Source of the DNA: Candidatus Aenigmatarchaeota archaeon
GTDB lineage: Archaea > Aenigmatarchaeota > Aenigmatarchaeia > QMZP01 > QMZT01
DNA: 64,000 nucleotides
Direction: 5' to 3'
Assembly: GCA_963726265.1 (NCBI GenBank)
Contig: CAVSBQ010000002.1
Coordinates: forward strand, 32,001-96,000
Position 1 is the first letter of the stretch. Every line of letters starts with the position of its first letter. Made by a program: the position numbers. Positions 18,001-24,000 of the stretch are shown here, in pieces.

Positions 18001-21000
18001 CGCCTGCATCCGAGTGGTTTGAGTTCGAGGTCGAGATAAAGGAGGAGCCGGAAGAAACCAAGAGGGAATACGGCAAAGGCGTCAACGTATCGGAATCCGA
18101 ATTCATTGAAAGCGAATACGCGTTCAAGTCCGAATACGCCTTCAAAAGCGAATATCACTCAAAATCAGAATACAGATAAACTTTCTATTTCCTTTTCGCA
18201 TTCTTCCTTTTGTGTTTTTTGTCGTTTTTTATTTTTCTCATTTTTACCCTGGGCACGCGCTTTCTCAGCTTCTCGATGAGCGACGCCCTCTCGCCTTGGG
18301 TGAGAGCCCTGGCCGCGCCTATCGCGGTCGCGAACTCCGCGTGTTCCGGGACGATGGACCTGCCTCCGAATATCTTCACAACGTTCTGAATCTTTCTCAT
18401 GAGCGTCTTGTTCTTCGTGACCTTGCCGATGAAGACAATGTCCTTCTCGAGGCCGTGGTTCTTCGCGGCGAAGGTCGAGAGCGTTCCCACGACTTCGCCG
18501 ACCATGCTTATCAGGCCGAGCGCTATGTCATGCGACGTCGTCTCGTCGCACAGCCTGCCGAAATTCGCGGCAGTCGCTTCCGGCGAGAGATTGCCTATTT
18601 TTGTCCCCACTATGTCCCTGACGGTCAGGTCGATTTTTTTCAGGTCGCCTTTGCTGGCGAGGATTTCGAGGTTGTTTATGTCGTCCTTGTTGAGCAGGAG
18701 CCTGAACAAGCCCTTCAGCGTCCCGCCTCCGACGCCAGTCCCGCCGACGTGCCTTATTATCTTCCCTCCATCGGTGACGGCGACCATCGCCGTCCCGGTC
18801 CCTATGCTCACGACGAAGCATTTCTTCTTGCCCGTGAGCATCATGCCTCCCAGCCCTATCGCCTTTATCTCCTCGACCTTTTTGACAGGGATGCCCAAAA
18901 GCGAGCTGTTGAGCTTCTTCGAGCCGCCGCCAGTCGCCGCGACGGCAATGACCCTGTTTATGGTCGTCCTGTTCTCGGTGACTATCTTGCCGAGGCAGCC
19001 CGCTGCGGAAGCCATGGCGTCGCTCGCCTGTATGGCGGTGAAGCTGCTTATCTTCCCTTTCCTGAGCATCACGCCCTGCGTGGTCGAGCCGCCTATGTCT
19101 ATGCCGACAATCATATTCAAATAATTGGGAATGCAATTTATAAATTATGATACGCAAATTGCGCGCGGCAAAGGCCAAGGGTTATTCTCTCTGGTTCATG
19201 CCTTCGGGCTACGCCAGGAAAAAATTCAGGAAAACAATCGCCGGGCTCGCGCAGAAATACAGGGGCCCTGCCTTCGAGCCGCACGTAACGCTCGTGGGCG
19301 GCATCGAAAAAAGCGAAAAGGAAATGCTCAGGGAAACGGCGGAGCTTGCGAAGAAAATCAGGCCGTTCAGGATAACCCTTGGCAGGACCGAGGGAACCGA
19401 CCGCTATTTCCGCTGCCTTTTTGCAGGAGCTTACGAAACCAGCGAGCTGATGGTGGCCAGCCGCAAGGCGCTCGCCTCATTCAGCATGAAAAAAAGGTCC
19501 GGATACAAACCCCACCTGAGCCTGTTTTACGGGAAACTTTCTTCCGGAACAAAAAAAGAAATCGCCTGCAAATACGATTTTTGCGGCGCAAAGTTTGAAG
19601 TGAAAAGGATACGCCTCATGCTGACAAAAGGCCCGCCGGGAAACTGGAAAAAGGTGCGCGAATTCCGGTTGGCCTGATTTACCTGCAGAAAGGGCACTGG
19701 CCTACATTGCCTGCGCATTTCACTTCTTTCTTTATTTTGTCGCAGAACGCCTTTTCGCCCAGGAACCACTGGCAGAATGTTTGGCCAGAGGTATCGGGAC
19801 TGGTTGCGACAGGAGGCACCATGGTAGGAGTTTCGATCTTCTTAACGTCTTGTTCGTCCATGTTTAAACGTTCGTTTAAACATTTAAATTCCTATATTAA
19901 CCCAAAAAGTCCGATAAGGGCGAGCACCACACCCAGGAAACCCTCGCCGCCGATGAGGCCTGCTGCGATTAGCTGGCCTTTCTCCGTCCAGCCCTTCTTG
20001 TCTGCAAAGTAGCGGATTATGCCGCCCGCGAACAGCGGGAACGAGAGCTCGATGGGCGCGTAAAGGCCGATGCCGAAGGCGATTGGCGCTATGCCCTGCC
20101 TGAAATAGATGGAAACCAGGGTGAGAATCCCGCCGAATATTATGCCCCATACCATGTATTGTGAAATCCCTCCAGCAGACACAATCGCGGAAAGCGCGAC
20201 CGCTTGGGGCGCGGGCAGGTTTACGGAGCCGATTTTATACATCTGGTCCAATGCCAGGAGCACGACGCCTATGACAATTCCGGACGAGAAAACGCTTATC
20301 ACCTGCGCCTTTATCTGGTCTCTGGGCTTCGTCCCGACAAGGTGGCCGGCCTTCAAATCCTGCATGAAGTCGCCTGCCATGCCAGCGGAGATGCAGAGTA
20401 TCGCGGCAAGCACGACCGCGATGACGGGGTCGAGCTGCACGAACAGAAGAACGATTATCAGGATGGCCATGGCGAACACTTCCATGGGGTCGATGTTTAT
20501 CTCGCCCGTTATGCGCGCTGCTATGTAGCTCACCAGGAAAGCGCCGAAGATGGAGACTATCGCGATGATAACGTTAAGTCTCAGTGCAATGCTCAGCAGC
20601 GCAGCAAAAATTATTACAGCTACGAACCACCACCTGCTGCGCTTCTCCTTCTTCCACGCACCTTTCATCATAGGCACGAAGGCTGGCAGGCCCTTTACAA
20701 TGAAGTAAATCACGCTCGCGCCGATTATCACCCCGATGCCGAAGGGCTTCGTGGCCGTCATCATCGCCGCGGCTTTGTCAGGGAAGACCGCGAAGGAAAC
20801 CAGCGCCGGCACCGCAACGAGATACGATGCAACGGCGCCCGCGAACCACAGCGCGGTGAATTTCAGCCCTATCAGGAAACCGCCCGAGAACGTGACAAGG
20901 GTTATGCCTGAGCCGAAAGAGAAATATTTTGCAGCAGGTAGCTTGAGCGAATCGAGGTTGAAAAACGACGGGAACGCCTGGAAATAATCGCGCAATACGG

Positions 21001-24000
21001 CGAAAAGCCCGCCCAGGCCGAAGAACGCGAAAACCGTTTTCGCCTTCTTCCCTCCTTCATCGCCTGCTTCGAGGACCTTGGCCGTCGCCGTCCCGTCAGG
21101 ATACGGGAGCTTCAGCCTCTCTATCATCTCCTCGCGCAGGGGAATCGTGAACAATACGCCAAGCAGGCCGCCGACTATCGCGATGAACGTGACTTCCATG
21201 ACCGAAATGTCAAGCCCCATCAGCCATATCGCCGGCACGGTGAAGATTATCCCCGCCGCCAGCATGCCGCCTGTCGAAGCCGCGGTGGCAGCGACGTTCA
21301 CTTCGTTCTTGTTCGTTTTGCCCCTGCCGAAAATCTTCAGAAGGGCGAAGGACATGAGCGTCGCGGTGATTATGGGCCAGTAAACCCCGCCCGCTTTCAG
21401 GCCGGCGTAGGCGGAATACATGCAGATGACCGCGGAAAGGATCACGCCGACGAGAATCGCCTTCCACGTAAAGGCCGAAGAAGATTCCTTTTTTACCATT
21501 AATTTTCAGATTGAATGAGGGCATATATAAAACATTCTCATTGTTTTACGTGGGTTGTCGAATATCTAAAATTCAGCGTGATTATTTTCAAGAAGTCTTA
21601 TCAGCTGCTCCCTGGTCACCAAACATCTCGGCTTGTAACCGTTCTGCGCGTTGCTCAGGAGATTCCTGTGCGACTTGTTTTTCGAGTTCCCGCCCCTCTC
21701 AGAGGAAACCCTTTTCAGCACCTTTTCGTATTCAAGCGTCCCCCGCGGGAGCTCCCTCTCCATGACATCGAAGCCGCTGCCGTTCGGCTGCAGGCTGATG
21801 CTGCGGAAAGGCGGCTTGCCGGAAGTCGCGCCTTTCTCTTCACCGACCGGCAGTACGGAATAGCCCTTCCACGGTCCGCCGTAGACGTTGCCGCGGTATT
21901 TTTTCCCGAACGCGAGGTAGATCATAAAAATTCTTAAAGAATTCTTGTGCCCAAGCCCTTATATAATTTTATATATATTTTTGATAAAAATTATGTAAAA
22001 TAATATATAGGATATCTTCGGCATGCCTTTCAGGGATTTTTCCATTTTTGCCATGAATATATAGTTTGGGATAACTAAAGGGTTAAAAAATTTACTGTAT
22101 AATATCAACTCTTATGGAAGATGAAACATTGATGCTCGTGACCGGAGGCGGCCACGTTCATTTCGGGCCTGGAATAAAGACACTGGTAGAAGCCAGCAAA
22201 GAAAGGGGCTGGAAAGTACTGGGTTCTCTCTACGGCTGGAAAGGCGTGGATGCGAATTCTGGCGAGGAAGAAGTTGTGAATTTGGGGCTTCTGGATTCCG
22301 GCAGACTGGAAAGGATGATGAGCATAGGCGGTTCGCCGCTGTTTTCTTCAAGAACCAAGGCACAAATGGAGAGGACGCGGGCCACAATGAGAAAGTATGG
22401 CGTTACATACGTTATCGGTTTTGGTGGTGATGATACCCTGAGCGTTGATGCTGGGGTTCCCATAATAGGATGGCCGAAAACAATGGACAACAACCTCGGC
22501 CCACAGTCTTCAGAACCAGACCTGTCTCGTGGAACTTATTTTACCATAGGATACCCAACTGCCGTTGAAAAAGCAGGTAAAGCGACAGCCGTAGGCCATT
22601 CGAATGCACAGACCAACAGCAGCACTCACATAATAATACCATTCGGAAGGAGCCAGGATTTCGTTGGCGTGGGCGCGACAGCTTACGGAGCTGCTGATTT
22701 CATGGCTCCCGGAGAAAGAAATGTCAATTTCGAAGAATTCTACCAAAGACTTCAGGAGGCCCGTCTTAAAAACGCGGAACTTTACAAATGCAAGCCCTTT
22801 GCCGTTGCGGTCGTTCCGGAAGGAGTGAACAGAGGTAATGTTGTCGAATTTTTAGAGGAGTTTGCGCCTCCTGAACTGGTTCAATATGCAAAGAATGAAA
22901 ATTATTTCAAAAAAGATGATTTCGAGCACATGGAACTTAACCCAGAACTGATAAGCATGATGTTGTCCGAAAGTCTTTTGAAAAGAAGCAAGGACGAACC
23001 TAAAGAAAGAAAAATAACAAAGGTTACATCAAAGGTGGTCAGTTATCATCTGAGGGACGGAGTTTCCACGGAAATAGACCAGCGCATGGGCTCGGAAACG
23101 GCTATGAAGTGCATTGAACTCATAGAGCTGGGCAAAGAGGGGCTCATGGCAACGGTACGATGGGATCCGGTTAGTAGCGATTTCACCACAGGCGATGTTC
23201 CCATAAAGGATGCGATAAAACAAAGATATGTCGACGGCACTGGATTTTTTGATTACGCAGGGACGTGGAAACCCACAGAAAAATTTATTGTGTACGCCAG
23301 CAGATTTGCAGGAACCCCGCCCCAGAAACAGGATCTCATTCACGGACCTTACCAGAAAGCCGTGCCTGTTGGTTAAACAACTTTTTAATAGACCGGGAAA
23401 TTCCTGCAAAAAATGAACCGGCCCTGGAGTGGCTCATTTCTTTTCATGCTGTTTTTTCATGAAGAACTCGCAGGCGGGACATCCCAGCTCCATCTGCTTA
23501 CAGTGCGGGCATGCAAGCTTGCCGTACACAATCGGGTTGCCTAGGAAAGTGACAACCAGCGGCCAGACCGCAATCCCTATCACGGCAAGGCTGAAGTTTG
23601 GCCAGTTCACGTAAGTCAGATATGCTCCTGCTATCACCGCAATTATCACCGGCAGCATAGTGGGGATGAAATTCTTCACGGTCAGCTTCCTTTCGTTGAA
23701 TTTCCTTTTCTCGTCCTTCTTCATGAAAACCTTCGCTATCTTACCCTTGCCGCATACGCAGCGCTTTCCGTAATAATAGCAGCGCACGCACCCTCCCCTG
23801 AGCGCCTGGACTTCGAGAAACGCGGTGTAAACGAAAACCAGCAGCGCGAGTAACGGCAATACCATGTATGACAGGTAAAGCGCCGATGCGTAGACGGAAA
23901 ACGAGAAAAAATAGTAGACAAGCATCATCCATGCCGGATAGCTTTCAAACAATTTATCAGCCATATTCAAACCACCTCAATTGGTTTTATCAAACGTCTC

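Follow-up and report, generated by a model that had tools for sequence, protein, structure and literature searches.

The OPT-family transporter encoded beside a type II pantothenate kinase (PanK-II) in a small-genome Candidatus Aenigmatarchaeota archaeon probably imports pantetheine or one of its disulfides, the substrates that we infer for it, for a three-step CoA shunt. Transporters of this type, whose genes adjoin vitamin B5 genes in many microbes that are not related to each other, are a strong candidate for the prokaryotic import route of pantetheine as a CoA precursor. The shunt itself, import by yeast Opt1 and the occurrence of one OPT gene beside a PanK gene (2011) were already known; a 2025 review calls prokaryotic pantetheine and pantethine uptake unknown (PMC12570885), and prokaryotic OPT proteins were described in 2011 as biochemically uncharacterised (PMC3061005). 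A specific transporter subfamily can now be named with a testable cargo, for which Clostridia offer a culturable test ground. The findings also point to a supplement for media in which uncultured Aenigmatarchaeota might be grown, and they show a stepwise loss of CoA synthesis within DPANN archaea.

The transporter locus and the CoA enzymes of its genome

The stretch of DNA that was analysed (the window) is 64,000 nucleotides long. It encodes, on the minus strand, a 535-amino-acid OPT-family transporter with the YSL fold (positions 19892..21499; PF03169, E 1.7e-68, 232 bits). The protein passes the family model TIGR00728 (155 bits, cut-off 128) and falls below the equivalog model of the canonical prokaryotic OPT proteins, TIGR00733 (171 bits, cut-off 182.5). 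Its only relative in the PDB, by sequence and by fold, is barley YS1 (Foldseek match to 7wsr, E 5.6e-14, TM 0.71), and it belongs to the YSL branch of the family.

The OPT gene lies 771 nt upstream of the PanK-II gene on the same strand (18185..19120, with a likely ATG start at 19114). The kinase matches the Fumble/ASKHA profile PF03630 (E 3e-28; 99 bits, cut-off 28.5), has S. aureus PanK as its top PDB match in both sequence and fold, and carries the kinase-motif Asp and Glu that are invariant at all 38 pair loci; it is a type II pantothenate kinase. It scores 218 bits against the 234-bit cut-off of the equivalog model NF009842, which close relatives pass. As the survey's finding had stated, two genes separate the pair here. 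One, on the minus strand (19679..19861), is a Cys-rich ORF of 60 amino acids that has no Pfam match and has homologues at five related loci (G072, G074, G082, G083 and G085); it is a lineage-specific passenger. The other encodes a 2H phosphoesterase (19147..19677, plus strand; PF07823, two HxT/S motifs). This gene was rejected as a member of the module, as it lies on the opposite strand and stands between the pair at only 3 of 26 PanK loci of the order, and is an inserted passenger.

The remaining shunt enzymes complete the set. An archaeal PPAT, the second shunt step, is encoded at 9298..9789 on the minus strand (NF001985, 138 bits, cut-off 104), in tandem with a paralogue at 8706..9200 on the same strand that scores marginally below that cut-off (102.7 bits); dephospho-CoA kinase (DPCK) is a DUF359 protein fused to an archaeal kinase domain (C2:1097142-1098164). 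The genome also encodes CoA-using enzymes. CoaBC was sought with a profile search of the source genome, which gave no DFP match (control 14/14, the figure that the survey had also obtained), and with a tblastn search using four CoaB/CoaC proteins, which returned nothing at E 0.01. The sole PF02441 match was rejected as a stand-alone CoaC, being UbiX in a modified mevalonate cluster. PPS, type I PanK and type III PanK were looked for alongside CoaBC and none was found in this genome, which is 88% complete with a main contig of 1.105 of 1.132 Mb; archaeal de novo PPS (PF02006) was not found in G000, G086, G076 and G007 and was found in G101 (control, 4/4 archaea). The earlier claim of PPAT and DPCK without CoaBC was thus borne out, and growth on, or uptake of, pantetheine is predicted. 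Because kinase, PPAT and DPCK occur without CoaBC, pantetheine should be usable and pantothenate not, in the source genome and its two families.

In the proposed route, OPT would act as a secondary importer, probably proton-coupled, that scavenges pantetheine, pantethine or a mixed disulfide, all unphosphorylated, from a host or the medium; the form that enters may be one of these disulfides instead of free pantetheine. An imported disulfide would be reduced inside the cell, after which the type II kinase would trap pantetheine as 4′-phosphopantetheine, PPAT would adenylylate it and the DUF359 kinase would make CoA, which would be needed at least for the thiolase/HMG-CoA synthase step. PanK enzymes of types I and II are described as phosphorylating both pantothenate and pantetheine (PMC12406275), and phosphorylation of pantetheine is the activity proposed for the kinase in the window.

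Distribution of the transporter–kinase pair

Among the 90 other genomes of the order, PanK-II occurs in 25 and OPT in 28; a further OPT match, in G075, was false, with no OPT ORF there. These counts differ somewhat from the 24 and 20 given by the survey. All 26 genomes of the order that carry PanK-II carry OPT. At 24 of the 26 PanK loci OPT lies upstream on the same strand and contig, within 2.3 kb in every case and within 1.5 kb in 21, so that the claimed conservation of a same-strand pair holds. The survey had placed OPT within 1.5 kb upstream at 11 of 17 loci, with the rest cut by window or contig ends; the upstream position stood, but only two loci are interrupted by contig ends and three pairs are farther apart. 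In all 12 pairs of family f4 the two genes adjoin directly or share up to 4 nt. PPAT and DPCK are each present in 25 of the 26 PanK genomes.

CoaBC absence is general across the order (90 of 91 genomes). The survey had counted none in 36 genomes. CoaBC was not found in the source genome or in any of the 29 OPT genomes, but it does occur in one of the 91, G001, which has no OPT–PanK-II pair. A DFP match above cut-off in G061 was rejected, its ORF reading by eye as an NAD-dependent epimerase. Most members of the order lack the module, and the 47 genomes of family f6 have none of the CoA genes searched for while 44 of them keep HMG-CoA synthase, so CoaBC absence alone does not point to OPT. PPAT and DPCK occur together in four genomes (G079-G081 and G090), and PPAT in G078; all five are without PanK-II and without OPT. 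Kinases of type I and of type III were considered as an explanation and found in none of four such genomes tested for each, and their PPAT/DPCK neighbourhoods, viewed by eye and compared by BLAST with the genome's own proteome only, held no obvious kinase candidate.

Woesearchaeota, Methanofastidiosia, WOR-3 and Clostridia also have the pair, with OPTs from clades that diverged deeply. It was found at 12 of 58 OPT loci outside the order, in addition to G722. An evenly drawn set of 400 Clostridia genomes gave 10 new OPT loci, 7 of them with the pair, although PanK-II itself is present in only 44 of 399. Of 30 Clostridia PanK-II loci, 7 have OPT in the slot upstream of the kinase and 18 have an ECF S-component there, and the two were never together within 1.5 kb. 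Among 80 metagenomic PanK-II loci, just 7 have an OPT. Fusions of ECF S-components to PanK exist. OPT–PanK fusion proteins were sought among candidates of 544-2000 amino acids and none was found, which is weak evidence.

The transporters are set apart from the canonical prokaryotic OPTs. In a tree of 82 rows (partial or near-duplicate OPTs and L173 omitted), a branch with SH-aLRT 100 separates 17 canonical OPTs from them; a further tree was built with 21 redundant rows dropped. All 74 subfamily rows, and none of the 17 canonical rows, have residues S29, W41, P42, E340 and F342, W41-P42 having been part of the search pattern. One kinase clade partners OPTs of two clades that are about 30% identical to each other.

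Cargo of the transporter

Occurrence of the pair in other phyla, the interchange of OPT and ECF S-component, a genomic context of pan genes and S58 hydrolases, and the example of yeast Opt1 all support the survey's view of a CoA route from pantetheine with OPT as importer. At ten related loci an S58 hydrolase gene (E 2e-47 to ThnT) lies directly downstream of OPT, and four of these loci have panB, panE or panF nearby. Within one family, the kinase gene of G571 is part of a complete pan-coaBC operon that includes no OPT, and in G722 OPT and kinase occur without CoaBC. We lean, with modest confidence, towards a broader reading: this distinct archaeal and bacterial OPT subfamily would be the dedicated pantetheine/pantethine importer missing from the prokaryotic shunt, having gained this cargo independently of Opt1, exchangeable with an ECF S-component and used in two wirings. 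In the first, OPT would serve a type II kinase and CoaBC would be bypassed; in the second, it would serve a hydrolase like ThnT, whose release of pantothenate would supply type III kinases. The Aenigmatarchaeota OPT would then mark one stage in a graded series of CoA dependence that runs from de novo synthesis through pantetheine and phosphopantetheine to whole CoA.

An alternative that we regard as unlikely is that the subfamily mainly imports pantothenate, as an analogue of ECF PanT, and that the archaea use an unrecognised PPCS/PPCDC or take pantetheine as a side substrate. OPT does occupy the same slot as the ECF S-component, and at one locus (L159) a type III PanK gene comes immediately downstream of it. 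CoaBC accompanies the pair in 6 of 12 pair genomes outside the order (Methanofastidiosia-like), and CoaB(C) does so in 4 of 7 Clostridia; beyond the order, where the pair is often found alongside CoaBC, pantothenate could also be a cargo. The kinases bear on this question as well. The position of S. aureus Arg113, which we take to bind substrate, is a His at 38 of 38 pair loci and in 144 of 150 representatives, and in human PanK Arg207 is described as binding an inhibitor carbonyl. The His was rejected as a mark of pantetheine specificity because it also occurs in CoaBC genomes and in a complete de novo operon, where the kinase should accept pantothenate; the role of the type II PanK family therefore stands. 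Against pantothenate as the main cargo, CoaB is missing from every OPT genome of the order, a downstream S58 hydrolase would be unnecessary, panF already adjoins OPT at L183, and 4 of 5 pair-bearing Clostridia tested already have a type III PanK, a kinase type described as selective for pantothenate (PMC11487621, PMC12406275).

Still more doubtful is a cargo of small peptides, thiols of the glutathione type or metal chelates, with the kinase link as inherited gene order and pantetheine arriving by diffusion or host contact. Such cargo is the family default, predicted for other prokaryotic OPTs (PMC3061005), and in Methanofastidiosia the gene after that of the kinase encodes an M29 aminopeptidase. 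The S58 family is one of peptidases, and the best solved matches to these hydrolases are a nylon hydrolase and an aminopeptidase, ahead of the pantetheine hydrolase ThnT. No PanK or S58 gene was seen next to OPT at 36 of the 58 loci outside the order; among these are the loci of Acidobacteria, the nearest relatives in Bacteria (54-63% identical), of Calditrichota/KSB1 and of most Eggerthellaceae. Many OPT relatives lack pan neighbours, and members of the order without OPT still use CoA. Yet the link to the kinase survives in three OPT clades that diverge deeply and in several phyla whose neighbouring genes otherwise differ. The kinase tree also conflicts with the OPT tree, a sign that one partner has been replaced by another from the same transporter subfamily. 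The chelate-contact residues of HvYS1 (Phe130, Ser136, Tyr451, Lys482 and Tyr551) are not conserved, a result of low confidence because it comes from mapping by hand at 18% identity.

A phosphorylated or larger cargo (4′-phosphopantetheine, dephospho-CoA or CoA), with a kinase that only recycles dephosphorylated material, is very improbable: yeast Opt1 is reported to take phosphopantetheine disulfides as well (PMC12406275), a 2H phosphoesterase gene lies between OPT and kinase here and some relatives have PPAT and DPCK only, but those relatives are the ones without OPT, OPT is tied to the kinase and not to PPAT/DPCK, and the 2H gene is rare and on the other strand.

Comparison with known systems

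In the main texts of the open-access literature (subscription papers being outside this scope), no paper was found that assigns pantetheine to a prokaryotic OPT or describes the pair in archaea. The nearest precedent is OPT subcluster 4E (Cce1 of Clostridium cellulolyticum and Cae1 of Collinsella), short proteins of 537-558 amino acids from Firmicutes and Coriobacteriia; one was noted in a cluster with pantothenate kinase, and the authors guessed a phospholipid substrate (PMC3061005). Judged by size, taxa and context, 4E is probably clade C of the present analysis; the passages of that paper on the subcluster draw no link to CoA salvage, archaea or CoaBC loss.

The fold is like that of HvYS1, the barley iron-phytosiderophore transporter (PMC9691689), and acidic residues equivalent to Asp490/Asp494 are kept, whereas Ser136, Tyr451, Lys482 and Tyr551 correspond, in the hand mapping, to Phe86, Glu340, Cys369 and Leu436. 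The kinase is closest to the S. aureus type II PanK (CoaW) and keeps its motifs, but has His in place of Arg113. Uptake of cysteinopantetheine by B. subtilis TcyJKLMN likewise brings a pantetheine disulfide into a prokaryotic cell to be salvaged; TcyJKLMN, however, is a promiscuous ABC cystine transporter of unrelated fold, and the relevant passages describe no link to a kinase gene (PMC11487621, PMC12570885).

S. cerevisiae Opt1, which is reported to import pantetheine-glutathione disulfides, is similar in being an OPT-family protein that brings pantetheine in for CoA while PPCS/PPCDC are bypassed (PMC12406275). It belongs to the family's other branch (PMC3061005), the fungal glutathione/peptide one, whereas the transporter in the window is of the prokaryotic YSL branch and linked to a kinase; as far as tested, without comparison of the Opt1 sequence, the two are non-orthologous. 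The bacterial pantetheine shunt (variant Apn: PanK, CoaD and CoaE without CoaBC) follows the same three-enzyme logic, and known B5 transporters were reported in only 12% of about 90 predicted pantetheine-auxotroph bacteria (PMC6593275). The present route differs from it in being archaeal, in using an archaeal PPAT and a GTP-type DPCK, and in having a named candidate importer.

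The transporter–kinase pair in the window and the order

In the window, profile searches identified a gene for a 535-aa OPT-family protein (21499-19892, minus strand), followed 771 nt downstream on the same strand by a type II pantothenate kinase gene (PanK-II; 19120-18185, minus strand). As the initial survey noted, two genes are inserted between them, a 60-aa Cys-rich ORF and a 2H phosphoesterase on the strand opposite to the pair, and a single simple transcript is therefore probably not formed here. Two PQQ-type beta-propeller repeat proteins (14382-15641 and 16848-18179), whose repeated, SEY-containing C-terminal tails are acidic/aromatic, belong to a family that is expanded close to the pair in many members of the order. 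A ThyX-like gene (25659-27192) is read in two frames (337 and 171 aa) versus a single ~505-aa frame in relatives, possibly through a frameshift or assembly error.

PanK-II occurs in 26 and OPT in 29 of the 91 genomes of the order (one further OPT match was false), and all 26 kinase genomes also have OPT. The conserved same-strand pair described by the survey is real: OPT lies upstream of PanK-II within 2.3 kb at 24 of the 26 loci, and the remaining two are interrupted by contig ends. The survey's 1.5-kb spacing holds for 21 loci, with three more only within 2.3 kb. All 12 pairs of family f4 abut or overlap by at most 4 nt, and the three OPT loci that lack a kinase all reach a contig end or stop within 1.7 kb of one. 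Because members of the order are akin and hence not independent, these counts represent few events. CoaBC, which the survey considered missing from the order, is indeed found in none of the pair genomes, but one genome of the 91, without the pair, has a real CoaBC. Phosphopantetheine adenylyltransferase (PPAT) is present in 25 of the 26 kinase genomes (22 over the cut-off, one partial, and two of genus g6 in which the gene is part of a bacterial CoaD-CoaE fusion, as was confirmed for one of them), as is dephospho-CoA kinase (DPCK) in 25. In genus g6 (locus L108:1384-2529 in G076; also G075 and G077) this fusion replaces archaeal PPAT and DPCK, and the pair is of the f4 type rather than that of its own family.

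The window's own genome (1.13 Mb, four contigs, 88% complete) has two PPAT genes, tandem duplicates at window 8706-9789, 9 kb from the pair; the duplication is present too in G081, G087 and G089. An archaeal DPCK (DUF359) fused to a nucleotide-kinase domain is encoded on the same contig, away from the pair (G000 C2:1097142-1098164, equal to L068:1486-2508). The GTP-type DPCK sits behind the archaeal nucleotide-kinase domain (NF003012-like), and comparable fusion frames of 330-350 aa are found throughout families f1, f3, f4 and f5; genomes with DPCK only may thus keep the frame for its other domain, the nucleotide kinase. CoaB was not found by profile search (control 14/14), and the sole flavoprotein match, considered as CoaC, is UbiX. 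Queries for CoaBC, CoaB, CoaC, PanF, PanB, PanE, type III PanK, S58 and ECF-S gave no tblastn match at E 0.01 in this genome, and two positive controls did match; PPS, type I PanK and type III PanK were searched for and not found. The cell requires CoA, since the genome encodes HMG-CoA synthase, adjoined by thiolase-like and DUF35-like ORFs (both named by eye).

Two groups in the order count against OPT being generally needed: family f6 (G022-G068, 47 genomes), where PanK-II, OPT, CoaB, archaeal PPAT and DUF359 were not found in a search that left CoaE outside and where 44 genomes retain HMG-CoA synthase, and G079-G081 and G090, which have PPAT and DPCK and lack the pair. CoA dependence is graded within the order, from G078-G081 and G090, where PPAT is kept, in some cases together with DPCK, and a kinase was looked for and not found, to f6, with none of the CoA genes searched. 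In a phylum sample the kinase occurs in only 28 of 351 genomes, two of them outside the order, and these form a natural contrast: G722 has OPT and kinase, with CoaBC not found, whereas in G571 the kinase belongs to a panC-panD-panB-panE-coaBC run, and the 10 kb examined there contain no OPT. The G571 run (L386:4655-9449; Aenigmatarchaeota class) constitutes a full pan operon of bacterial type (panE, panB, panD, panC, PanK-II) adjoining coaBC.

Relatives of the transporter outside the order

A pattern-based scan across GTDB genomes gave at least 80 OPT loci, at least 58 of them outside the order. Among the matches listed, PanK-II lies directly downstream in 12 of 58 (Woesearchaeota, Methanofastidiosia and related archaea, WOR-3 and other lineages), with CoaBC in six of these 12 genomes and not in the other six. 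Where CoaBC is present, and in one tested pair genome PPS also, the pair would be an add-on salvage module. A peptidase S58 gene is directly downstream of OPT in nine Firmicutes loci among the matches listed, some with pan genes (panB and panE in two, panE in one, panF in one); type III PanK was present in all five genomes tested, and PanK-II in none of the nine. The one S58 protein tested matches ThnT (E 2e-47), named as a pantetheine hydrolase in PMC13725253; this match ranks below those to a nylon hydrolase and an aminopeptidase. In Eggerthellaceae one OPT directly precedes a type III PanK gene. The other 36 of the 58 listed loci, some incomplete, have no PanK-II, S58 or type III PanK neighbour (L173, from the unpublished genome G126, enters this count alone). 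The eight closest outside relatives among the matches listed (51-63% identical) all come from genomes with PanK-II somewhere; in six, Acidobacteria, CoaBC is present and the OPT and kinase genes are separate. At Acidobacteria loci L121, L122, L127 and L128 the closest bacterial OPT is in tandem with a canonical (TIGR00733) OPT, directly behind it in two and ~2 kb behind in two. In G099 (Theionarchaea; L247:4652-7068) PPAT, PanK-II and an aminopeptidase-like gene form one run, with OPT elsewhere and CoaB not found.

Among 400 Clostridia genomes, sampled evenly and irrespective of OPT neighbours, there are ten new OPT loci: PanK-II is directly downstream in seven, S58 in one and neither in one, and one is cut. 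CoaB(C) is present in four of the seven pair genomes and was not found in three; type III PanK occurs in four of five tested. PanK-II was found in 44 of 399 genomes of this class sample. Of the best 30 of these kinase loci by score, 7 have OPT directly upstream and 18 have an ECF S-component there (17 exceeding the Pfam cut-off), the two never together within 1.5 kb in these 30. ECF-S-kinase fusion proteins also occur, with PanK-II behind the S-component in P0088, P0104 and P0131; in P0012 PanK-II is followed by an RNase H domain. In metagenomes OPT lies within 4 kb at only 7 of 80 PanK-II loci and another membrane family at 16, ECF-like in two of five tested. The kinase has thus recruited transporters repeatedly, and at least two such solutions exist, OPT among them. 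Nine metagenomic kinases (L281, L282, L287, L290, L292, L298, L301, L332, L353) are directly behind a ~400-aa protein with a C-terminal GNAT domain, and at six further loci a family III CoA-transferase lies downstream.

Phylogeny, structure and residues

Quick trees, with long-branch warnings and a limited outgroup, place the OPT subfamily in three deep clades and a small fourth branch of metagenomic origin, and separate all of these from canonical TIGR00733 proteins (SH-aLRT 100); each clade has kinase-adjacent members. The kinases of the order form one clade (98), yet they are paired with OPTs of two clades ~30% identical. Clostridial and Methanofastidiosia kinases cluster together, while the corresponding OPTs do not. 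Both mismatches fit a replacement of the partner inside a single transporter subfamily better than they fit passive inheritance.

The predicted model of the window OPT (pLDDT 70) matches barley YS1 only. When the two are aligned by hand at 18% identity, the proton-coupling residues of YS1, Asp490 and Asp494, are kept, whereas its chelate contacts are not, and its Tyr451 aligns with Glu340, which all 74 subfamily rows have and none of the 17 canonical rows has. For the kinase, the predicted model matches S. aureus PanK, whose Arg113 position is His throughout the window kinase's subfamily. As a sign of pantetheine preference this His was rejected, being uninformative because the kinase of the G571 de novo operon also has it. 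The kinases of the six closest Acidobacteria form a separate clade, with Arg in all three readable.

Candidate cargo and known systems

We consider it probable that OPT imports pantetheine, as the survey proposed, or a disulfide of it. By secondary transport the cargo would enter the cell, any disulfide would be reduced, and PanK-II would phosphorylate pantetheine before PPAT and then DPCK act; in genomes with type III PanK only, the S58 hydrolase would free pantothenate from the same cargo. Pantothenate as the main cargo is unlikely, as it would be a dead end where CoaBC is missing. An unrelated cargo seems quite improbable, and a phosphorylated one very much so, since it would leave the link between transporter and kinase unexplained.

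The mostly open-access main texts consulted yielded no prokaryotic OPT assigned a pantetheine cargo and no report of the OPT-PanK-II pair in archaea. The pantetheine shunt is established (PMC6593275, PMC7770189) and its transporter is described as largely unknown (PMC6593275, PMC12570885); PMC6650551 and PMC8693618 cover the archaeal pathway and human Arg207. In a 2011 study one clostridial OPT lay next to a pantothenate kinase, and its substrate was guessed to be a phospholipid (PMC3061005); yeast Opt1 takes up pantetheine as glutathione disulfides (PMC12406275), and B. subtilis TcyJKLMN takes up cysteinopantetheine (PMC11487621). The pair described here is a variant of a known route, to which it adds a well-supported, predicted transporter.
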